64,000 bases of DNA from Candidatus Poribacteria bacterium (GCA_965222225.1 CBDCTK010000002.1:4680643-4744642), one strand, 5' to 3'; counted from the first letter of the stretch, positions 37,348 through 62,738 are shown. The notes: generated from the sequence alone by a model not told the origin. Program-made: numbers and translations.

Positions 37348-39102
37348 TTATGAAGTGTGCTTCTGTGTTTTCTGAATCTTCGCCCACGTATCTCGAAGTG
37401 TTACCGTCCGATTGAACACCGGCTTGTTGTCAGAAGAGTCGAGATCTACACAGAAATAACCCCTCCGAAGGAATTGGTAGTAGCTGCCAAGTTTTGCGTC
37501 AGCAAGGCTTGGCTCAACTCTAGCTGAATCCAGTATCTGCAACGAATTGAGGTTGAGATAATCAGTAAAATCGCGTCCCTCCTCAACGTCGTTAGGATTT
37601 TCCTTGCTGAATAGGTGTTCATACAGGCGCACTTCAGCCTCAATAGCGTGGGGAGCAGAGACCCAATGTAACGTGCCGCGGACTTTACGGCCGTCTTCAG
37701 ACCAACCCCCGTGAGTCGTCGGATCGTAGGTGCAGTGGACTTCGACGATCTCACCGGTATTTTCATCCTTAACGACACGCTCGCATTTGACGTAATAGGC
37801 GTGTTTGAGACGCACCTCACGTCCCGGCGCCAGACGAAAATACTTCTTTGGCGGATCTTCCATAAAGTCCTCGCGTTCAATATAGAGTTCCCGCGAGAAA
37901 GGGATTTTACGCGATCCCATCGTCGCATCTTCCGGATTGTTTTCAGCCTCTAGAAATTCGACCTCTCCTTCCGGGTAGTTGTCAATAACGACTTTAAGCG
38001 GATCTAACACTGCCATGACACGCAGTGCACGCTTGTTGAGATCTTGACGGAGGCAATATTCGAGTAATGAAATTTCGACTAGATTATCGGCTTTTGCAAT
38101 TCCAATCCGTCTGCAAAAGTCTCGGATAGCCTCCGCGGTGTAGCCACCTCGGCGTAAGCCCGCTAACGTAGGCATCCGGGGATCATCCCACCCGTTAACA
38201 TACCCATCTTCCACTAATTGAATCAGTTTTCGTTTACCGAGTACGGTATGGGTAAGATATAATTTCGCAAACTCAATCTGTTGCGGGTGATAGATATCCA
38301 ACTGATTGAGGAACCAGTCGTATAGAGGACGATTGATTTCAAATTCAAGAGAGCACAAAGAATGCGTAATACCCTCAATAGAGTCTGAAATACAGTGCGT
38401 AAAGTCGTACATGGGGTAAATGCACCACTCATCGCCTGTATTGTGATGCGTCGCGTAAAGAATTCGATACATCACGGGATCACGCATGACCAAATTGGGG
38501 GATGCCATGTTAATTTTTGCTCTGAGAGTGCGAGTCCCCTCTTCAAATTCTCCTTTTCTCATGCGCTCAAACAGGTCAAGGTTTTCTTCTACGGAGCGGT
38601 TACGAAACGGACTATCCACTCCCGGCTCGGTCAATGTCCCCCGATATTTGCCGTAGCTAATCTCTACTGCCGTTAGGTCACAAACATAAGCTACGCCCTT
38701 TTTGATTAACTGCACGGCATACTGGTAGAGTTGCTTGAAGTAATCTGACGCATAGAACTCGCGATCTGCCCAATCGAAGCCAAGCCACCGAATGTCCTCT
38801 TTGATCGACTCCACGTACTCAACATCTTCCTTGGTGGGATTCGTGTCATCGAATCGTAGGTTGTAGAGTCCACTGTAGTCTTCTGCGATTCCGAAGTTGA
38901 TGCAAATGGCTTTTGCGCTTCCAAGGTGTATATAGCCGTTCGGCTCGGGCGGGAACCGCGTATGCACTTGACCGCCGTGTTTATCCGTCTTTAGATCTTC
39001 CTTAATTATTTGTCGGATAAAGTCAGTGGGCGCCGCAGAAGAACCAACAGAGTTGTCTTTGTTGTCAACCCCGCCTTCTTTTGCGGTCGTTTCATGTGTC
39101 AT
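37348..39102 (-). CDS. glnS: Glutamine--tRNA ligase
   Basis: …[44 protein letters not shown]… GlnRS signature; 584 aa. Tandem with gltX. Confidence 0.9.
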
Positions 39103-50536: not shown

Positions 50537-53500
50537 TTATGCTGCCCAACGCTCCGACAAAACTTCGGCTTGCTCCAAGACGGTTTCAGCGGCTTTAGCT
50601 TGTTTATCGGGTGGATAGCCGTATTTCCGCAGAATTCGCTTCACCAATCGGCGCAGGTTGGCGCGGACGCTCTCCTTCATCGTCCAGTCGATGGTCACGT
50701 TGTTTCGGACAGTTTTCACAAGTTCAGCCGCAATAGTGCACAAGGTCTCATCTCCCAACACTTGCACGGCGCTGTCGTTGGTCTCAAGTGCGTCGTAGAA
50801 CGCCAATTCATCGCTCGAAAGCCCCAACTCCTCGCCGCGCTCTACCGCCTCACGCAACTCCCTTGCTGTTTGGATAAGCTCCTCAATCACCTGCGCGGCT
50901 TCTATTGTCCGGTTTTGATAAGCGCGAATTGATTGTTCCAACATCTCCGCGAATGACCGCGATCTTACGACATTCTGCCGTGAATGCGTCTTGATTTCAT
51001 CGTTGAGCAACTTATCCAAGAGTTCGACTGCCAGGTTCCTTTGCGGTAAGTCCCGCACCTCCGCGAGGAATTCGTCGGAAAGAACTGAGATATCGGGCTT
51101 CTCCAATCCGGCGGCGGCAAAGATGTCAACCACCCCTTCGGGAACGACAGCTCTTGATACCAACTGCTTGATTGCCAGGTCCGCCGCCTCGGACTGCGTT
51201 TCTTCTCTAGCCGTCAGCTTTTCCAAGACACCGCGCACCGCTTGGAAAAAGGCGACATCGTCGCGGATTTCAATTGCCCTTTCGTGCGGCACTACTAGCG
51301 AAAAGGCTTTGGAGAGCGCAGTGACCTCATTCAGTAGGCGGGTTTTGCCATCTTCCAAGCCCAAGATATGCTCTTGAGCGGCGGGCAGTAGCCTGAGGCG
51401 TTCCTCGGTGTTTCCGTCATCCCACGACGACCAATCTAATCCGTGGAACAGCCCACAGCAGATTTCGTGTTTTTCCATCATTACGGCAATGGCTTCGGCT
51501 TTATCAATGGATGGCTCCCCTTTTCCTCCGCTGTCAGTGTAGTCCGCCAATGCTCGCTTGAGATGGTAGCCAATCCCGATATAGTCCACAATAAGACCAC
51601 CGGGCTTTTCGCCGAAGACGCGATTGACGCGCGCGATGGCTTGCATAAGGGTGTGACCTCGCATCGGCTTGTCAACATACATCGTGTGAAGGCTAGGCGC
51701 ATCAAATCCGGTCAGCCACATGTCGCGGACAATCACAAACTTCAACGCATCATCGGGATTCTTGAACCGAACCGCCAGCTCTTCGCGCCGCGCTTTGTTG
51801 CGGATATGCGGTTGCCACGACTCGTCCTCCGACGCTTCGCCCGTCATTACAACCTTAATAATCCCCTGCGTGTCCTCCTCATCATGCCAACCCGGACGCC
51901 TTTCCACAATGGCGTTGTAGAGATCGACGCAGATACGGCGGCTCATGCAGACCACCATCGCTTTGCCGTCCATCGCATCCAACCGCTCCTCGAAATGCGT
52001 GATGATGTCATCGGCAACCAGAGCCAGACGCTTCTCCGTTCCGACCAGTGCCTCAAGTTGAGCCCATTTGGATTTGAGTCGCTCCTTGTGCCTTTCCTCC
52101 TCCCCTTCGGTCACCTCCTCAAATTCCGGGTCAACATGGGGCTTCTCGTTCTCGTCCAGCTCAATTTTGGCGAGTCGGCTCTCGTAGTAGATTCGGACAG
52201 TGGCACCGTCATCAACCGCTTGTTGGATATCATAGATGCTGATGTAGTCTCCGAATACGTTTCGGGTGTTGCGGTCCGTTCCCTCAATCGGGGTGCCGGT
52301 AAAACCGATAAATGAGGCGTTCGGAAGCGCGTCGCGCATGTGACGGGCAAATCCGTCAATAAAATCATACTGGCTGCGGTGGGCTTCGTCCGCAATGACC
52401 ACAATGTTCCGTCGATCGGGCAGTTCAGGCAAGCGGAGTTCTTCATCTTCGGGAAAGAACTTCTGCACCGTGGTAAAAACTACACCGCCCGAAGCAACTC
52501 TCAAGAGTTCGCGCAAATGTCCCCTGTCTCGCGCTTGTTCCGGCGTTTGTCGCAAGAGTTGGCTGCACCGAGCGAACGTACCGAACAGTTGATCGTCCAA
52601 ATCGTTGCGGTCGGTAATGACGACCAGTGTCGGGTTTCGCATCTCCGGGCGCCGGATGATACCCCCGGCGTAGAATGCCATAGTCAGGCTTTTGCCCGAA
52701 CCTTGCGTGTGCCAGATAACGCCGCAGCGTTTGTCCCCGTCTGGGCGCGACGCCTTCACGGTAGCATCGACCGCCGCTCTAACGGCGTGGAATTGGTGAT
52801 AACCGGCAATCTTCTTGGCAATCGTATCGCCTCCCGTTTCCTCAAAGACAATGAAATGACTAAGATAGTTTAGGAACCGCTCCTTGTCAAAGAGGCCCTT
52901 GATTGTTACCTCAATTTCCGGATCTGTTGATGCGGCTTCCGTTTCTCCCTCAATTGTTCGCCACGGCATGAACCGCTCCCGATCCGCCGTCAAAGAGCCG
53001 ACGCGGGCCTCCACCCCGTCGGAAACAACAAGCGCCTCGTTATACGTGAACAGCCGCGGAATTTCCCGCTTGTAGGTCTGAAGTTGGCGAAAAGCGGACC
53101 ACACGGTGGCGTTCTCGTCGGTCGGATTTTTGAGTTCAATCACGCCTAACGGGAGTCCGTTTACAAACAACACGATATCCGGTCGGCGTTCACTATTTTC
53201 CACGACGGTGAACTGGTTAACCGCCAGCCAGTCGTTGTTTTCGGGACTATCGAAATCCAACAACTGCACACGGTCACCGTGCATTGTGCCGTCGGAATCC
53301 CGATATTCGACCTCTATGCCATCAACCAACATGAGGTGAAATGTCCGATTGTTTTGAAACAATGAGGGGGAGTTTGGAGAATGGACTTTTTGAACGGCTT
53401 CCTCTTGCGATACGGCGGGGATGTTCGGATTCAGGCGGCCAACCGCATCGCGCAAACGACGCTCTAGCACCACGTCCTCGTATCTTGAGCGTTCAGCATC

Positions 53501-53605
53501 GGAAGTGTCCGGGCCGATGTCGGGACCGTGCAAGACGGAATAACCCATACCAGCGAGCCAATTCAGTGCGGCTGTTTCGATGTCGGATTCGGTGATGCTA
53601 TTCAT
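50537..53605 (-). CDS. hsdR: Type I restriction enzyme R subunit (endonuclease/helicase)
   Basis: N-terminal PD-(D/E)xK nuclease region, SF2 helicase motifs (GSGKSLTM Walker A; DEAH in …[10 protein letters not shown]…), 1022 aa, and the typical HsdR C-terminal helical domain. Confidence 0.9.
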
Positions 53606-53655
53606 TGATTCTTGACGTTCAGTATTATTGCTAACGGTTTATTTTTGTAAGAGGG

Positions 53656-54893
53656 TTAATGTGACGAGTTAACATGAAGGCTTTCACCCTGTATTGGACC
53701 ACCTGAATTGGTCAACGGATCCCCAACCTCAAAGAAACCCTCCATCCAGAGGTGTCCTAACTTCCCTCCTGTCTCCATGAATTGATGAATTCCGCGCATG
53801 TCCACCGTGCGTTTGCAAACCGTAAACCCCTCCTCATCTCGATACAGTACCCACACCTCGTCGGCGTGGAGCTCGTTGATAAAATAAGGAAATGGGTAGT
53901 AATCATGAGTTGAGACGAGGCTGACGCCCCACGGCACTCGTCTGTCAAACTAGGCAACAACCGTGGATGTAAGTGATTTTCAGGTTCTCCAATACCGATA
54001 AAGGGGGCAGGCTCTGGATCATGTAGCAGCGTGAGATACGAAAGCAACTTTAACGTGCCCTCCGAGGTAAACTTCGCCAAGATGGATTGCTCAAACGGTG
54101 CATCTTTTATCTGCAACAACAAGCGACCATCCGCCATCAGTTCTGCGTCTACCTTTTCTAGTCGTGGCACCTGATTTGACATAATTGAGAGAATCTTTCG
54201 CAAACGGCTTGGGTGCTGTTCTTTCAAATACTGGATAACGTTCGCCAGATTGTCTCCTGTTTCTGAAAGCTGCTCTCGCGGCCCCGTTGCTTCAACTCCG
54301 CGTGTGGCATCAATGGAAAGATGGGAGAGATGCCAGCCAGTAATGAAACGACGAAGGGGCCCAAGACGTGGGTAGCGCGACAATTGGCCAAGAGTGCTCG
54401 CAGCAAGTGTTGACGAATCATCAAACTGTTCATCGGTTTGCTCCGCTTCCTCATCTGGCATTTCACCCGCGATGACTCGTCCTGCGCCGTGACGAAAATC
54501 AAGAAAACGAAACGGCTTCCCCCGATTGCCGCGCCGCCAACTCATCCATTCGGATTCCACAAAGGGGCCCTGTACTCCTTCATCAATGGCTAGATGATAG
54601 GTGATAATTGGCATTCCCGGTTTCTCACGATATTTCAAATCAAATTCAATTGCTCCATCACTTCCCCGTGTTCGCAGATGCTTAAACCGCCCTCTTTTAT
54701 CCCAGGCACGGCGCAATCCGATTGTGAAACATTCGGAGAGAAACGCAAATACATCAAGTAGCGTGGACTTTCCACTGCCATTGGGACCCGAGAAGACTGA
54801 AAGCGGCGTTATTTTTCGTAATTGCACATCCCGCAGAGAGCGGTAATCTTTCACGCGTAATGACTCAATGCGGGGAACGGTTTGTTGCAGCAT
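53656..54893 (-). CDS. ABC-type AAA ATPase (AAA_15/AAA_21-like, OLD/abortive-infection-type); split by an apparent frameshift near 53890
   Basis: Start ATG 54893 (MLQQTVPRIESLRVKDYRSLRDV…). Walker A SGPNGSGKST, Walker B/D-loop …FIGIGEPENHLHP…, and the H-loop …SQLMITTH. The sequence then continues in another frame as (S)PYFINELHADEVWVLYRDEEG… (ORF 53656..53937), matching the usual TTHSPxLL…EVWVL continuation of this family. Confidence 0.6.
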
Positions 54894-54936
54894 CTGAATT
54901 GCCTCTATGGCTACCCTGACATGGCGACTATTTGTT

Positions 54937-56052
54937 TTACCCCTGTTGCGGCGTAGTATAGCGAGCAACAAATTTGCTACTGTCAATATCCGGCTGTCCT
55001 TGTCGGGCATAGAAGGAGGAGAAGCGCGCGACAATATCCTTTACAAAGAAAGGCGAAATCTGGATTGAGGGTTTTTCAAACTTTTCGTCGAATTCGTTTT
55101 TAGTCAGCGCGTTCATTTTTCTGAAATTAAGAAACCCACCGTCAAAAAAATCTGTTTTCGGCAACCAGTGGTAGTAAAATGTGTAATTGTTGTTGAATAC
55201 CGCCTTGAGTGTTTCTTTCGTCTTCTCCCTTTTCCTCTTCTCGTCGCGCATCCTCTTAACACTAACCAATGCCTTGTCTACAATATGATTTTCTTTTTCA
55301 ATCTCAACGAGGAGAATACGATCTGTCCTGAATTCACCGTTACTTTTGAAAACGAGATCGCACGCCGGACTCAACACCACGAAAGGCTGATCGCTCGTCT
55401 CGTCTTTCACAATACTCCCGGTTGTGATATTGCTCGACAACGGTGGATGGAGGTAGACCTCTTCTGGAAAACACCGTTCGTCACCTTCCTCAAGCAGTTG
55501 AAATAAGTGATTCAAGGTGTATCGGAGAAGAGCCTTTTCGGTTCGCTCTGAATCTTCTTTTCCATAAGAAATCCAGGTTTGTATCTGTGACCGAAGGTTT
55601 TTGAGAAAAACTTCATTTAGTCGCTGTTCGATTAGTCCTCTGCCACCCATGATGTGGGTTAATCCCGTATCAAAAATCTCCCAAAATCGGTCTAGAAGTT
55701 CGTCATACCGAGTTTTCCCTTTTTGGAAAACGCTAAGGAGCATGATTTTTTTATTCAAAGTGTAATCTGAATTGCCCGGGTTTGCCGTAAATATGGCAAT
55801 TGGAATGCGGAAAAACGACTCTTCGATCTTTTTGATAACCTGATTCCCCTCATCACCTTCATTCGCTAGTTTTAAATCGATAATCGCACCATCAAAAGAG
55901 TTGTCCAACAGTTCTAATGCTTTATCAAGAGTTTTGCATCCAACCGGTTCAATATCTCGATTCTTTTCATCAACGTATCTTTCCACAGAATCCTTGCACG
56001 CCTCAAGATCTTGTTCGTCGTCTTCCACGATTAGCAACCGTAACTTGCTCAT
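54937..56052 (-). CDS. Receiver (REC) domain protein with an uncharacterised ~250-aa C-terminal domain (candidate effector)
   Basis: N-terminal CheY-like receiver: acidic pocket LLIVEDDE, phospho-acceptor Asp in …DGAIIDLKL…, and a conserved T/K (…IAIFTANPG…). Residues ~120-371 carry no motif I recognise. The start ATG overlaps the upstream kinase stop (ATGA). Confidence 0.6.
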   Translation of the reverse strand: MSKLRLLIVEDDEQDLEACKDSVERYVDEKNRDIEPVGCKTLDKALELLDNSFDGAIIDLKLANEGDEGNQVIKKIEESFFRIPIAIFTANPGNSDYTLNKKIMLLSVFQKGKTRYDELLDRFWEIFDTGLTHIMGGRGLIEQRLNEVFLKNLRSQIQTWISYGKEDSERTEKALLRYTLNHLFQLLEEGDERCFPEEVYLHPPLSSNITTGSIVKDETSDQPFVVLSPACDLVFKSNGEFRTDRILLVEIEKENHIVDKALVSVKRMRDEKRKREKTKETLKAVFNNNYTFYYHWLPKTDFFDGGFLNFRKMNALTKNEFDEKFEKPSIQISPFFVKDIVARFSSFYARQGQPDIDSSKFVARYTTPQQG

Positions 56053-58226
56053 TTACCATTCTCCATCTTGGGCTGAAGTCTGAAATAGGCGCCTTCATCG
56101 GACTCAAAGGCTTTCAACTCAAGACCGTTTCGCTCTGCGGCTTCAGAGGCTATCGCCAGCCCAAGCCCCGTTCCGTCCGGTTTGGTGGAAAACTCAGGTT
56201 CAAAGATGACTTCATTTTCGATGAGGCTCGGTTCAATTCCCGGTCCGCTATCTCGATAGTCAATATGGGACAGAGAGTTACCATCGGTCACGAGTTCGAT
56301 TTTAATTTGCCGTTTGGTTCCTTTCTTTTGGCTCATCCAATAAAGACTGTTGTCGATAAGATTTGTGAAAACCACGTAGATGTCTTGAGACCAAGCGGAG
56401 AATTTAAAGCTGTCAGTACCTCTGATTTCGGTAGATACATCTTCGGATTTCATCTCGTTTTCAAAAACTGAGAGAGTATTCTCTATTGTCTTCTTCAACT
56501 CCAGTGGTTTTTTGGCGGCACGTTTTCCCGCGGCTAGTGGATTAAGTCTTCCGAAGAGTTTCACGAAAATCTCCATATTTTCCTCAACACCATCGGCAAT
56601 CGACAGCATTTTTTCAAGTTTTCCCAGATCCCCGGTTTCCTGAAATCTTTCTCTCCAGTATCTGAGATTCGGTATTTGGTTCCGAAAGTAGCTGAGCGGT
56701 TGGCTGCCTTCATGGACTATGACATTAAGGATTTTCCCTAGAGTGGCTTGCCCTTGGTAAACCCTAAGAGCTTGCCTGATTTCATTAGCATCCCTGCCCT
56801 TATCTTTTTCTACCTGGCCAACGATTTCAATAATTCGATCGATGGTTGGTTGATTGCACCCATCTTCGGTGAGTTGCCTCCGTATGTTCCGTTTCAACGC
56901 ATCAAAGGAGAAAAGCCGTCCCAGCTCCCGTTCCACCTTGATAGCAGGCCGACTCAATCCTGCTTTTCTTCTGTACTCATAACGCCGCCTTTCCAGTTGC
57001 CTGATGACCGCCAGTGTGACTTCCTTCAGCCGATTGAACGCCTCATTCTCTTTAAGCCCGTCCCGAGCGCTTTTTTCCTCCAAGCCGGACCACTCGACCG
57101 AATCAATGTGCACATATCCTATGACTTGATTGTTAGCAATACAGAGTGACGGATTCTGTACGCGTCTCGCGTTCAGTTTCAACCAGTCAAAATCGGCATC
57201 GCCAAGCGGTCGGATGCGGAAGCCGTTCCGATAAACGCCGATACCGTTGTATGCATTCAGAAGCTGTCTCGCCTGATTTTTCCCGACATAGTTGCCCGAT
57301 TCCTCCTTTAGTCCTCGTCCAATCAAAGATTCAATGGCATCGTTGTCGCGGTCATACACACAGATTTCAATTTGAAACTCGCCGCAGCCAGTAGAATTTT
57401 CAAAATCAAATGACACTTCCTCCCTTATATCAAAGTCGATCTGTACGTCGGGAACGTTACGGGCTTTCTGTGATGAGTACGTCAGAAAACCTTTACCATT
57501 TTTTCCGATGTTCCCCGAGATCCTGTAGTCATAGAGATCGAAAAGTAAATAGGGTTCGATCTCTTTCTCAAAGTCCTCCACGCCCGGAAAACCCCGAACT
57601 TTCAAGTTTATACGAAATTCATCATCCTTAAAGACGCTACTCACAGGTGATTTTAGTTTCTTCAACTCAAACTGGAGCTCCTCAAACCGTTTCTGATCCC
57701 ATTCGGCGAGAAGCTGATTATTTCCATTGATGGTCAGTCGTGTGCCTGGTGACTCCGATACCTTCGTTGTTTCAATGGGAATTCCCACGTCATCTAGATA
57801 TTCAGCAGACTCGAATTTGTTCCATTCAAAAGATGCCGTAGTTTTCTCTCCTTCTGGAGTCACAGTTTCGAAAAACAAATCTGTGCCGAGAATGGATGCC
57901 GCATACCGTCCCACACCCTTATTTCCTTGCATTACCCTTCCCCCACGACTGATGCGTTTGTCAAATTTGTCCCGCGTTGACGGCACCATCCATTTGTCGA
58001 TGACATCGTCCCTCGACATCCCGTGACCGTGATCTGAGATAATGATAGAATATCCACTGCGAGTAGGAGATTTCTTGAATTCCACCTGCACATCCGGAGA
58101 GTCTGCATCATACGCGTTTTTTACGAGTTCGACAACAGCCGCAGAATTGTCGTGAATTAGGTCTTTTCCGATAGTCAGAACGTGCCGCCCCGCGGGCCTA
58201 ATTTTATGAGTTGTATTGGCGTTCAT
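56049..58226 (-). CDS. Cytoplasmic histidine-kinase-like protein with an additional N-terminal Hsp90/MutL/MORC-type GHKL ATPase module
   Basis: N-terminus (start ATG 58226, GAGGAGG RBS): GHKL N-box/G-boxes …AVVELVKNAYDA…, …IIISDHGHGMS…, …GNKGVGRYAAS…. The middle has an H-box-like VHEGSQPLSYF. The C-terminus is a canonical HATPase_c: N-box NLIDNSLYW, G1 DSGPGI, G2 GTGLGLAI. No TM helices. Confidence 0.6.
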   Translation of the reverse strand: MNANTTHKIRPAGRHVLTIGKDLIHDNSAAVVELVKNAYDADSPDVQVEFKKSPTRSGYSIIISDHGHGMSRDDVIDKWMVPSTRDKFDKRISRGGRVMQGNKGVGRYAASILGTDLFFETVTPEGEKTTASFEWNKFESAEYLDDVGIPIETTKVSESPGTRLTINGNNQLLAEWDQKRFEELQFELKKLKSPVSSVFKDDEFRINLKVRGFPGVEDFEKEIEPYLLFDLYDYRISGNIGKNGKGFLTYSSQKARNVPDVQIDFDIREEVSFDFENSTGCGEFQIEICVYDRDNDAIESLIGRGLKEESGNYVGKNQARQLLNAYNGIGVYRNGFRIRPLGDADFDWLKLNARRVQNPSLCIANNQVIGYVHIDSVEWSGLEEKSARDGLKENEAFNRLKEVTLAVIRQLERRRYEYRRKAGLSRPAIKVERELGRLFSFDALKRNIRRQLTEDGCNQPTIDRIIEIVGQVEKDKGRDANEIRQALRVYQGQATLGKILNVIVHEGSQPLSYFRNQIPNLRYWRERFQETGDLGKLEKMLSIADGVEENMEIFVKLFGRLNPLAAGKRAAKKPLELKKTIENTLSVFENEMKSEDVSTEIRGTDSFKFSAWSQDIYVVFTNLIDNSLYWMSQKKGTKRQIKIELVTDGNSLSHIDYRDSGPGIEPSLIENEVIFEPEFSTKPDGTGLGLAIASEAAERNGLELKAFESDEGAYFRLQPKMENGK

Positions 58227-58389
58227 AACTGATTGCCTCCTCTTTTCCGCGGTGTTTAATCCCATGAGGTTTAGTCCGTAGCACAAACGATTGAAAAGTC
58301 AATTTGCTTGAATGCCGGCTGAATCATACCGTGAACGTATCTAGAGATTAAGAAATGATGCAGGGACTAGATACACCAAACAGCGGAGA

Positions 58390-59403
58390 TTATATCAAGT
58401 CAAAGAGATGCTGATGCGTAATTTCCGTATGGAACCAAGCTCCATAGGCACTGCGCAACCAGATTTCGGACGTACGAATCCAATCTCTCCAAGCATGCTC
58501 CATTTGTGCACGTTCCACATTCAAGACGCTCCAGAGCATCGGCAGCGACTGCGGCTTCTGAATTAGTAGAGAAATCGCACGTTGGTTTACTTCGGTGCCC
58601 TCAGACACAAATGTCAACGGAATCTCCAAGTAGGGATTGAAATTTGAGGGTAGACTTTCCTCATTGCCTGAAGCAATGTTTGCCGCTAGTTCATGAATAT
58701 GCAGTGCCAGATAATACGCAACTAGTGAAGCACGGTATTCAAATTCATCGCCGAATATGTGTGATAACCACTCCCATCCTGGCCTTTCATACGCTCCGGC
58801 CAAATATTTCCAACCTTTTACGCAATTTCCACCAGAATTACCACTAATCGACTCGGCGTACCCCCTTAATTCACTTCTTTGCCATAGATAAAGGTGCTTT
58901 GATGCATCTGCAACAGGAATCTTCGTTCGTGCAAGATCTAGGGCAAGGTCGAGTTGACCTGTTAACAGGCTAAGCCCTCCGTGGAGACTGTGGTAGACAT
59001 ACCCTAGTACATCAGGAATGTTAGACCATGTTGTGTTACTAGTACGGTTCCATCCCGGGATGTTCATCAAATCATAAATCAAAGACTTTTGATCCTTAAG
59101 TTCCTCTTTGCAGGATTCAACTCCCATTAAGGCAACAGAAATTAAGGGGGAGATGACATTGACGCCACCGTCTACAATCTGAAACAACTTCTCGAAATCC
59201 GGTTCTTGTCCATCCAACTCCCTTTCTCGCCATTTTACCAAGGCTTTGAGCACACTTGGTTTAATTCGTTTCATGAGTTGACGCCACCCAAGCACATCTC
59301 CCGCACGAGCAAGTTCAAATGCTACTGAATAAGCGTCGGATGCCGATTCAACGCACTCCGGGATTTCAGGTAATTGGGCGAAGATTTTAGGATATTCATC
59401 CAT
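58390..59403 (-). CDS. Hypothetical protein (337 aa) in the hsdS-hsdR insert
   Basis: Predicted all-helical protein with no recognised family. It has a C-terminal R-x4-H (…ERAQMEHAW…) reminiscent of HEPN-type signatures, but this is weak. Confidence 0.35.
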   Translation of the reverse strand: MDEYPKIFAQLPEIPECVESASDAYSVAFELARAGDVLGWRQLMKRIKPSVLKALVKWRERELDGQEPDFEKLFQIVDGGVNVISPLISVALMGVESCKEELKDQKSLIYDLMNIPGWNRTSNTTWSNIPDVLGYVYHSLHGGLSLLTGQLDLALDLARTKIPVADASKHLYLWQRSELRGYAESISGNSGGNCVKGWKYLAGAYERPGWEWLSHIFGDEFEYRASLVAYYLALHIHELAANIASGNEESLPSNFNPYLEIPLTFVSEGTEVNQRAISLLIQKPQSLPMLWSVLNVERAQMEHAWRDWIRTSEIWLRSAYGAWFHTEITHQHLFDLI

Positions 59404-59470
59404 TTTTTGTCTCCAATGTCATACGGATATAAACCGCCTAAGTTTAAACGTCATGCAAAAGCCGAAAAAG

Positions 59471-59731
59471 TCAATCAACGTGAATCTCCCCTGACAAAAG
59501 TTTCGGCAGCAGTGCCTCTCGAATTTGGGAAAGAGTGTGTGATTGATGAATGTTTTCGATAATTCTCCCAATGAGTGGTCGTATTAAATCGCTGTATTTT
59601 TGAGCGATTTCAAGTTGGGGCAGCACGAATTCATACTTTGACATGTCTCTCCAATTGGTTCGTGGCATTCTTGTACCCGTGGAATGAGCGTCAGTATAAG
59701 CAACGAATTCGTCACAGGACACAATCCCCAA
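59471..59731 (-). pseudogene. hsdS: Detached 3' fragment of hsdS (end of the second target-recognition domain plus the conserved C-terminal helix)
   Basis: …SQIREALLPKLLSGEIHVD is the conserved HsdS C-terminal coiled-coil motif. It is in a different frame from the main hsdS ORF and separated from it by ~185 nt. Confidence 0.5.
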
Positions 59732-59916
59732 AACAACATCGAACCATTCTGATTTAATCGGCTGGACAACTAGAATGTCGGTTGAGCAAACCCCATCGGT
59801 CGGCGCAACGCCGACCTTGTGAAAATAAGGTCGAAGTTTCCCAAAGAGGATTTCACCCTTTCTGAATCGAGATTTATTGCTGCCGATTCCGTCGGCAGTT
59901 TGCCATTCAGAGAGAG

Positions 59917-61131
59917 CTATACTCCGCTTGACATATGCTCTAATCCGATATAAACGTCGCTTGAGTCGATTTGGTTAACGTTTGCACTACGTCGAACATT
60001 TTGTGCAATTTCTCCGAGTGTTCCAACCTCCCACCCCTCCGGAATCTTCCCCAACGGCGAATCTTGAAAAGCAGAAGGGAATATGGTGGCGGTTTCCGCG
60101 TCCATGCCAACGGGCTCCCGCCCCTCCATCTTTGCCCGCACGGGATCTAAATCCACAAACCACGACTTGAAGATTGCCTTTGCCATCGCCTCCAGCGTCT
60201 CGTTCATCTGCCGATTAAGTTCGATCTTGTCGTCAAGTGAGCCTAGGATGTTGGCAATCCGGCGTTGCTCAGGAAGAGGTGGTAATGCAACAAGAAAAGA
60301 TTCAATGTGCGCTTTGGTAAGCGCTTTTCTTGTCCCTCCAGAATCGTGACCTAGCACGTAGGCTTTAACCCGCGGAGCACTCAAGTATTTTTGAAGGAAA
60401 GTGCTATTTAACCTATCAGAAGTTCGTATAACGGCAACATGTTGATTCACTCTCGCTGGTAGGGTCCATTTTGGAACAACGCAGCAACGAGCAACTGAAT
60501 CTCCTGTGATGTTCAAAAGCACATCATCTTCTTGTATATCTACCCGCCGTAATTTATATGCTGCAGATTCATCAATGTGGGCTAATCCATCTCTACTGAA
60601 TTCATGATCGTAGACGTTTTGGCTACGGATCAAACTCACTCCTTCCGATTTATAGACGTTCTTCCCGCCTCTAGGCGTCGCGCCAGTGCTTATAAATGAC
60701 GTTACGTCCGCTAAACGAACAACCTCCCAACCGGTAGGCGGCGCTCCTAGGGGTAGTGATTTTAACAATAGCTCATTTATTTTGGCACTTTGATTCTGGG
60801 TATTTTTTGAATTCGTGCATTCACCTGCAGTCTTCGCTTGGCGTATTACCTCATATTCCTCAGCAATCACGTGCTTGAACCCATCTGATAGCACATGCCA
60901 ATCTAACACATCAACCCGAATTGGAAGGTCGGATTCCTCGAATGCCTCTTTCAACTGACGCATGCGCCTTAGGCTGAACGGCTCACTACCGACAACTGCA
61001 AGATCTAGGTCTGAATAATCCTTTGCTGTCCATGTCATCCGTGATCCATAGGCGCGAACCTCGCATTCGGGGGCATGTTCCGTCAGTATGCGTTGAACTG
61101 TTTCAAGATATTTGGGATTAAGGTCAATCAT
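59917..61131 (-). CDS. hsdS: Type I R-M specificity subunit HsdS (truncated in TRD2) with an in-frame N-terminal MNT-type nucleotidyltransferase domain
   Basis: aa 1-98 are a minimal nucleotidyltransferase (…[24 protein letters not shown]…VDVLDWH…). From ~aa 120 it is HsdS (…[18 protein letters not shown]…, central conserved …[44 protein letters not shown]…). It ends ~45 aa into the second TRD. The start overlaps the hsdM stop (ATGA). Confidence 0.65.
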
Positions 61132-62738
61132 TGTGTGCTTTTATGCCCGAACATTCTCAGACTATGCCCAATTGCCTCGTCCTGTCGTCTTGCCTCTGCC
61201 ATCTGATCCGCCAGTCGTTCCGTCAAGAGGGCTATTTTCTCCTCAAACGGCTCGTCATCGTCCTCCTGAGCCTCGGCGCCGACGTAACGTCCGGGGGTCA
61301 ACACATTTCCGTGCTCGTGTATCTCTTCCAAGCTGGTGCTCTTGCAGAAACCCGGGATGTCCGAATATTCACCCGCTCCCTCGTCGCTGCGCCAAGCGTG
61401 ATAGGTGCTGGCAATGCGGGTTACGTCTTCTTCACTGAGTTCCCGGTGCACACGGTCAATCATGGCGCCGAGTTTCCGGGCGTCAATGAACAGCGTTTCC
61501 TTCCTCCGCTTTCGAAAACGAGAATCCTCTTTATTTCGAGCGAGAAACCAAAGGCACACGGGTATCTGCGTCGAATAGAACAGTTGCCCCGGCATCGCGA
61601 CCATGCAATCGACCAAGTCGGCTTCAATGATATTCTTGCGGATTTCGCCCTCGCTGGTAGTGTTGGAACTCATCGAACCGTTTGCCAGCACGAATCCGGC
61701 GATGCCATCGGGCGCGAGGTGATGGATGAAGTGTTGTACCCACGCAAAGTTGGCGTTTCCTGTTGGAGGCACCCCGTAAACCCAGCGCCTGTCCTCACGC
61801 AGTCGCTCGCCTCCCCAGTCGCTGCTATTGAACGGCGGATTGGCGAGGATGTAATCAACTTTCAGGTCGGGATGAAGTTCGCGGTGAAAACTATCGGCGT
61901 GCTCAACCCCAAGATTGGCGTCAATGCCGCGAATGGCGAGGTTCATCTGCGCCAGTTGCCAAGTGGTCGGGTTGGACTCCTGTCCGAAGATTGAGATATC
62001 GTCGCGTCCTCCGCCGTGCGCTTCAACAAAGGCTTCACTTTGGACGAACATGCCGCCCGACCCACAGCACGGGTCGTGCACTCGTCCTTTGTAGGGCGCA
62101 AGCATCTCCACCAGCACCCCCACCACGCAGCGTGGCGTGTAGAACTGGCCGCCTCTCTTGCCTTCTGCGCTGGCAAATTGTGAGAGAAAGTATTCGTAAA
62201 CCCTACCCAAGATGTCCTTCGATCGATTCTCCTCCTCTCCCAAACCGATTGTGCCAATCAGGTCAACTAGCTCGCCAAAGCGACGTTTGTCAAGCATCGG
62301 GCGGGCGAAGTTCTTTGGCAGAACACCTTTAAGACGAGGGTTCTCTCCTTCAATGGCACCCATGGCTTTGTCAACTAGCGTGCCTATTTCCGGTGTTTTG
62401 GCGCGGGCTTGCAGATAGGACCAGCGTGCTTCTGTCGGGACGTAGAAGATGTTTTCCGCAAGGTATTCATCTCGGTCTTCCACAAACTCGTAACGAAAGG
62501 ATTCTTCTTCAAGATAATATTCACTCTCAGAATTAGCGGATTGTTTAAGTAGAAAAGCGTGTCGTTCCTCAAAACGGTCCGAGATGTACTTGAGGAAAAT
62601 CAACCCCAATACGACGTGTTTGTATTCCGCGGCATCAAGATTGTTGCGGAGCTTGTCGGCGGCTTGCCACAAGGTGGCTTCAAAACCGAGCGTCGCCCCG
62701 TTTCCGTTTGGTTTTGACTTTCTCTTGTTTCTTGCCAT
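61128..62738 (-). CDS. hsdM: Type I R-M N6-adenine DNA methyltransferase subunit
   Basis: HsdM N-terminal helical domain, SAM motif I (…[13 protein letters not shown]…), and catalytic motif IV NPPF (…[14 protein letters not shown]…); 536 aa. Confidence 0.9.

Follow-up and report, generated by a model that had tools for sequence, protein, structure and literature searches.

An in-frame fusion of a minimal nucleotidyltransferase to HsdS in a decaying Type I restriction-modification operon

The minus strand of the 64-kb stretch of DNA analysed here (the window) carries a Type I restriction-modification (R-M) operon whose specificity gene poses a question: why does hsdS begin with a nucleotidyltransferase of the antitoxin type, without a toxin gene beside it, and break off within its second target-recognition domain (TRD2)? 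The best overall explanation, at a probability of about 0.7, is that the gene belongs to a family of fused HsdS proteins, that its HEPN partner has been lost, that intact members may act as tethered antitoxins, and that the window copy is truncated.

Layout of the operon and of the fused reading frame

Additional defence genes separate hsdS from hsdR in the window's Type I R-M operon, whose closest relatives are found in Candidatus Poribacteria genomes. Its genes and the parts of the fused frame are as follows.

61128..62738, minus strand: hsdM, 536 aa, intact; its stop overlaps the start of MNT::hsdS (ATGA)
59917..61131, minus strand: MNT::hsdS ORF, 404 aa; a HI0073-type minimal nucleotidyltransferase (MNT) in frame with HsdS
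60838..61131, minus strand: MNT domain, residues 1-98; HI0073 type, with GSX10DXD and a third Asp
60742..60837, minus strand: disordered linker, residues 99-130; holds an A6 run at 60803-60808 (T6 on the plus strand)
59932..60741, minus strand: HsdS residues 131-400; they comprise TRD1, the central conserved helix (286-326) and ~45 residues from the start of TRD2
58390..59403, minus strand: 337-aa ORF; TIR-less C-terminal part of the SEFIR/TIR proteins (505-511 aa) of sister loci
56049..58286, minus strand: double-GHKL ATPase, 745 aa; HATPase_c_3 (49-162) and HATPase_c (635-742) (Pfam)
54937..56052, minus strand: receiver-like protein, 371 aa; N-terminal Response_reg at E 0.0012, below the cutoff (Pfam)
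53656..55034, minus strand: AAA_21/AAA_15 ATPase; HEC-01A at E 3e-128, profile positions 2-346 of 406 (PADLOC); frameshifted at about 53891
50537..53605, minus strand: hsdR, 1022 aa, intact; HSDR_N, SWI2_SNF2 and T1RH-like_C (Pfam)

A preliminary description of the locus had held that hsdM and hsdR are intact, that the first 98 codons of hsdS encode a complete MNT and that no stop codon separates the two parts of the frame, and all three statements are borne out. The hsdM product matches HsdM_N and N6_Mtase over their full length (Pfam) and MTase_I at E 2e-221 (PADLOC), while that of hsdR covers positions 3-1019 of the 1029 in the PADLOC profile REase_I. Within the 404-aa ORF, Pfam places Polbeta/NTP_transf_2 at residues 12-97 and Methylase_S at residues 132-314, and the stretch joining them is stop-free on translation. 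The MNT shows the catalytic motif GSX10DXD (as defined in PMC7641770) in the form G29-S30-x10-D41-x-D43, together with D74, and it matches HI0073 by sequence (PDB 1NO5, E 2.5e-22). It is not a small stand-alone antitoxin, being in frame with HsdS.

An intact twin of the protein exists. P0001 (553 aa) is an exact-length, essentially identical match to the reconstructed window protein and is encoded on L001, a metagenome contig that shares 97.8% identity with the window over 10.2 kb. The AlphaFold model of this twin (mean pLDDT 88.9) comprises a compact MNT (residues 1-97) followed by a canonical HsdS, and residues 101-115 between them are disordered (pLDDT < 50); the MNT is thus modelled as a separate domain on a disordered tether. 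In Foldseek searches with the same model, HI0073 (1no5) was matched at a TM of 0.96 (rmsd 1.0 A, 43% identity) and MntA antitoxins were also found; the HsdS part matched 1yf2 (E 3e-23) as well as 2y7c.

The 337-aa ORF has no family match of its own; it shares 58% identity (blastp) with residues 177-509 of the L082/L085 proteins, which occupy the same locus position and match SEFIR and TIR_2 (Pfam); the TIR domain is missing from the downstream gene in the window and in L001. The 745-aa and 371-aa genes overlap by 4 nt, and several Poribacteria loci have both of them in the same place, between hsdS and hsdR. PADLOC holds no model for the 337-aa, 371-aa and 745-aa proteins, the 745-aa protein giving only weak sub-domain matches to two Type II REase models. 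The AAA ATPase gene lacks one C at about 53891 relative to L001, in a non-homopolymer context, which is the second lesion of the island and is present in the window only; no HEPN domain was matched in its product, and a PrrC/RloC-type ABC-ATPase-HEPN protein is absent from the operon. A Schlafen gene (AlbA_2 with HATPase_c_4, 584 aa) is found at 26 related loci, as a rule within or next to the hsdM-HEPN/MNT interval (L002-L004, L006-L010, L082-L087 and others), and is absent from the window and L001; a 584-aa ORF at 37348..39102 was considered as its relocated copy and rejected, as it gave no tblastn match and resembles glutaminyl-tRNA synthetase by eye. Membership of the MADS system was likewise rejected (MAD3 at 81.8 bits against a cutoff of 420, MAD5 at 23.9 against 400; NCBIfam). 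The alignment of the window (52454-62667) with L001 is a mosaic, with 0.1-0.7% divergence over hsdM, hsdS and the 337-aa ORF, 1.8% over the HATPase gene, 4.6% over the receiver-like gene and 3.1% over hsdR, a pattern suggesting that the M-S segment was recently transferred or recombined.

The break in hsdS and variants at related loci

Comparison with the twin locates the break and the remainder of the gene.

59927..59931, minus strand: frameshift site; TCAAG in the window against TCAAAG in the intact twin (blastn, window against L001)
59917..59919, minus strand: premature TAG, after four aberrant codons (SSGV) past the shift
59471..59929, minus strand: rest of hsdS in the neighbouring frame, residues 402-553; remaining TRD2 and C-terminal conserved helix
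59471..59731, minus strand: 86-aa ORF that holds the C-terminal part of hsdS

The lesion is the absence of one A, CAAG replacing CAAAG at about 59928-59931; L001 reads ATG TCA AAG CGG where the window reads ATG TC AAG CGG, and this is the sole difference there. HsdS (PF01420) is consequently not one uninterrupted frame in the window, given the one-base deletion at 59927-59931 and the stop at 59917. Both TRDs and the central and C-terminal conserved helices are nevertheless all encoded within 60741..59471, on the same strand as hsdM and hsdR. Aligned by tblastn, P0001 residues 1-401 fall at 61131..59929 and residues 402-553 at 59929..59474, the latter at 100% identity; the neighbouring frame is open from 59974 to its stop at 59471 (three-frame translation) and includes GKLRPYFHKVGV ... 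LLPKLLSGEIHVD.

These results recast much of what had been proposed for the break. The frame does end ~45 aa into TRD2, as first described, after residue 400 and four aberrant residues. Part of TRD2 had been thought missing, but nothing is lost, since residues 402-553 align completely in the neighbouring frame; similarly, no coding gap underlies the 185 nt that seemed to separate the C-terminus, a figure that was measured up to the first TTG in the downstream ORF. Suspicion had also fallen on the A6 run at 60803-60808, which is in its fusion-keeping state (the family norm) and is not the lesion. As regards the suggestion of a decayed or rearranged gene, decay is upheld in the form of a one-base frameshift, while TRD shuffling left no sign at the break.

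With all 152 codons past the break intact, two readings of the lesion are left: an inactivation by mutation that happened very recently, or a consensus error. Under the second possibility, the organism's MNT::HsdS would be intact at 553 aa and its R-M system would work. Besides the perfect identity of those codons to the twin, this possibility can call on the position of the lesion within a short A run and on an apparent G4/G5 indel in the AAA gene of the low-coverage sister contig L001, which indicates that such errors occur in this data type. Against it, the run merely goes from A3 to A2, the second one-base deletion (53891) lies outside any homopolymer, and independent, clearly real hsdS disruptions occur in related loci. 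Furthermore, the rest of the window (~50 kb) has a coding density of 91% and no other split-ORF signatures, which argues against a generally error-prone assembly. An error is therefore a possible but less probable account: the second window-only lesion, the decay of related loci and the otherwise clean window tip the judgement towards a frameshift that is likely to be real and very recent, and the window copy is probably a recent pseudogene.

If the frameshift is real, the 404-aa product could conceivably be a functional half-HsdS that dimerises and directs methylation of a symmetric site. Truncated Type IC HsdS proteins (EcoDXXI, EcoR124I) work as dimers, which provides a precedent, and the window frame resembles these half-size deletion derivatives in ending after TRD1 and the central conserved helix. 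In addition, a sister species keeps a 350-aa allele without TRD2 residues ~351-469 in four assemblies (L002 and three others), which consists of the MNT, TRD1 and the central helix (L002 10001-11336; P0122, P0123, P0125, P0126) and is a possible natural half-HsdS. The window product differs from the EcoDXXI and EcoR124I derivatives in that it keeps a TRD2 stub and an N-terminal MNT; any such function is putative. It retains a 45-residue TRD2 fragment and four aberrant residues, it lacks the C-terminal helix, the modelled partner of the central helix, and further genes of the island are also decaying; a working half-HsdS is accordingly judged improbable for the window, and loss of function by the frameshift is preferred.

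A different single-base variant affects the linker. Its A run is A6 in the window and in L001 (both fused) and AAGAAA in L002/L004. In L082-L087 (six HiFi-style contigs from three samples) it is A7, ~280-300 nt into the MNT ORF, and a separate 119-aa MNT and a 451-aa HsdS are encoded in overlapping ORFs. Among close strains, a one-base homopolymer change thus toggles between the fused and the unfused state. Phase variation of Type I hsdS genes is known in some bacteria, and the nearby A6/A7 toggle might invite the view that the break itself serves to regulate specificity, as a programmed or phase-variable switch working through ribosomal frameshifting or slipped-strand mispairing, but this is very improbable: programmed frameshifting was rejected in the absence of a slippery heptamer at 59927-59931, where there is just an A2/A3 run, and the window contains no long simple-sequence tract and, by tblastn of P0001 over its 64 kb, no other hsdS fragments, silent copies or (inverted) repeats of the shufflon type.

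The fusion as a family trait and its HEPN partner

The fusion is not peculiar to the window. Relatives of the reconstructed protein include dozens of full-length proteins (517-582 aa, 42-81% identical) with both Pfam domains, and many of the 150 best MNT matches among 1.84 billion protein representatives are at least 480 aa long. In a species survey, an MNT-only profile was run against one genome per species; there were 531 confirmed matches, and the best 80 were analysed. Of these 80 loci, 64 encode an MNT::HsdS that is uninterrupted and at least 480 aa long; the 80 belong mostly to Candidatus Poribacteria and Dehalococcoidia/Chloroflexota and also include Latescibacterota, Nitrospirae, Acidimicrobiales, Verrucomicrobia, Neisseriaceae and others. 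An alignment of 80 full-length fusions shows G29, S30, R31, S40, D41 and D43 to be invariant and D74 to be kept in at least 90%, with highly diverse TRD1 types and a disordered linker, some 30 residues long, that varies in length and sequence. The spread over 64 of the 80 loci, the many TRD1 types and the invariant catalytic residues together mark MNT::HsdS as an old and conserved architecture and not the product of a local deletion. Some relatives carry tandem MNT domains before HsdS (L054 10001-11884; P0159, P0198; 627-638 aa).

Two plasmids in RefSeq illustrate the fused and unfused forms. Zymomonas mobilis ATCC 10988 pZMOB01 encodes HI0074, a 527-aa "subunit S" with an N-terminal MNT, and hsdR; Acetobacter ascendens pAP1447-1 encodes hsdM, a HI0074-like gene, a 105-aa MNT, hsdS and hsdR without fusion. 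HsdSp of Z. mobilis ZM4 pZM32, for which two CDD superfamilies are given in its paper, was considered as an experimentally proven MNT::HsdS and set aside, the fusion being unconfirmed (annotated length 373 aa, order R-M-S). No explicit account of an MNT-HsdS fusion was found in the searchable literature, a scope that leaves out subscription journals and REBASE.

The partner of the fusion became apparent from neighbour clustering of the 80 loci, which revealed a gene of ~138 aa directly upstream. It matches PF08780 NTase_sub_bind (E 1e-31 to 1e-34) and TIGR01987 HI0074; the HEPN protein that it encodes carries RX4HXY, and its stop sits 8 nt inside the MNT::hsdS ORF (...LEARND* on ATGATTGA). PADLOC has no model that matches this partner. 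Among the 80 best of the 531 matches, an intact HEPN frame with RX4HXY lies upstream of the MNT in 62 loci, and the HEPN gene occurs together with a full fusion in 54. A second HEPN subtype (...RIDTTHDYD...MTGEPWE), mainly of Dehalococcoidia, ends 6-9 nt before the MNT start without overlap and was seen upstream of the MNT in L039, L043, L055, L059, L065, L067 and L078.

In the window, tblastn found no HEPN gene anywhere in the 64 kb and no RX4HXY gene adjoins the MNT, which agrees with the earlier remark that no partner gene follows the MNT. The identity and place of the expected partner have to be revised: it had been taken for HepT and sought downstream, but it is a HI0074-type HEPN protein (PF08780) rather than a DUF86 HepT, and in related loci it lies upstream, between hsdM and MNT::hsdS. 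A hidden HEPN was also considered in the 337-aa ORF (Rx4H as RAQMEH) and discarded: the homologue from L082 has REQMEN and does not keep the His, and the ORF corresponds to the C-terminal portion of a TIR protein.

The window, L001-L004, L011 and L049 lack the HEPN gene (in the last, an unrelated upstream ORF bears an Rx4HxY motif), and graded remnants of it are found: 81 aa in L014, an internally deleted form in L013, 27 aa in L036 and 7 codons in L011. The window itself may retain a trace of the gene.

61124..61138, minus strand: hsdM/MNT junction; GCA CAC AAT GAT TGA, read as A-H-N-D-stop in the HEPN frame

This junction matches the HEPN tail ...LEA(H/R)ND* on ATGATTGA in L005, L007, L012, L013 and others, and is proposed as the right edge of a HEPN deletion that left about four HEPN codons; as the evidence spans only 15 nt, it is suggestive and not conclusive. 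Taken together, the graded remnants and the window junction indicate that HEPN was lost while the fusion stayed: the gene appears to have been deleted in the window lineage and was probably lost several times across the loci. The toxin gene being lost and one base of hsdS missing, the MNT::HsdS of the window operon is a decaying member of an under-described family.

The earlier proposal that a deletion removed HepT and thereby fused the MNT to hsdS consequently holds only for removal of the partner. As a local event it could draw on the lack of a HEPN gene in the window and on the MNT standing directly before hsdS in unfused operons, but 64 of the 80 species loci have the fusion and mostly retain the HEPN gene as well, HEPN lies upstream of the MNT and not between MNT and hsdS, and the linker residues of the window are common to sister loci, where unfused variants read them as the HsdS N-terminus; fusion by such a deletion is hardly tenable.

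In the HEPN-less lineages, the MNT remains under purifying selection (median dN/dS 0.17 over 97 codons only; 0.11-0.25 for HEPN-less pairs with a similar, possibly shared, junction). The role of a pure antidote to a cis-encoded HEPN does not predict such selection on an orphan MNT, and the MNT may therefore have another partner. Candidates would be a trans-encoded HEPN, an R-M protein or a defence-island protein.

Proposed mechanism and significance

Poly-AMPylation of the RX4HXY tyrosine by MNTs with GSX10DXD neutralises the RNase of HEPN toxins, PF08780 pairs included (PMC7641770), and HEPN genes in R-M operons have been proposed as a PrrC-like second line of defence that is released when restriction is disabled (PMC3710099). 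By analogy, the HEPN protein of intact family members would most likely be an RNase toxin, which the MNT domain, judging by its motifs, would neutralise by binding and tyrosine AMPylation. Tethered to HsdS, the MNT would keep the HEPN RNase silent, and because the antidote is covalently part of HsdS, control of the toxin would be tied to the presence or state of the R-M complex. Through this coupling, the cell could become addicted to the R-M locus, or the toxin could serve as a PrrC-like back-up, set off once restriction is disabled. A more specific form, in which HEPN and MNT::HsdS would make up a guard module whose toxin is released on R-M loss, proteolysis or phage inhibition, and in which the orphan MNT would act on a second substrate, is regarded as doubtful. 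No experiment on any MNT::HsdS was found in the searchable literature.

The arrangement can be placed among known systems. It shares with the HI0073/HI0074 AMPylation pairs a close HI0073 homologue with GSX10DXD in the window and, in related loci, a PF08780/TIGR01987 partner with RX4HXY (the signature motifs of PMC7641770). Those antitoxins, however, are free proteins of < 150 aa, whereas here a Type I specificity subunit begins with the antitoxin domain, the order in relatives is HEPN then MNT with an 8-nt overlap, and the window is without HEPN. The unfused hsdM-HEPN-MNT-hsdS-hsdR operon of A. ascendens pAP1447-1 agrees in gene order, in the HI0073/HI0074 subfamilies and in its Type I context; it differs in that its MNT stop abuts the hsdS start, while here the stop is absent and a variable linker joins both, and in that the window has no HEPN gene. 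By gene order and domain content, the window fusion can be read as a fused variant of this known hsdM-HEPN-MNT-hsdS arrangement. The latent anticodon nuclease PrrC of the EcoprrI Type IC operon is similar by analogy (PMC3710099), as a HEPN RNase in a Type I operon with a proposed R-M control. Unlike the present case, PrrC is an ABC-ATPase-HEPN fusion encoded between hsdS and hsdR without an MNT; control here would be exerted by an HsdS-tethered nucleotidyltransferase.

For annotation, the locus offers the lesson of a single-base frameshift in an otherwise complete gene. HEPN/MNT pairs in Type I operons are already known from comparative genomics, and their functional link to restriction is a proposal. 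The decay series (HEPN deleted, MNT unfused by A7, TRD2 frameshifted or deleted) shows which parts go first. Furthermore, the occurrence of the fusion in a cultivable host (Z. mobilis ATCC 10988 pZMOB01) provides a tractable test construct. The fusion of an antitoxin to HsdS across several phyla is the strongest genomic hint that both systems may act as one machine.
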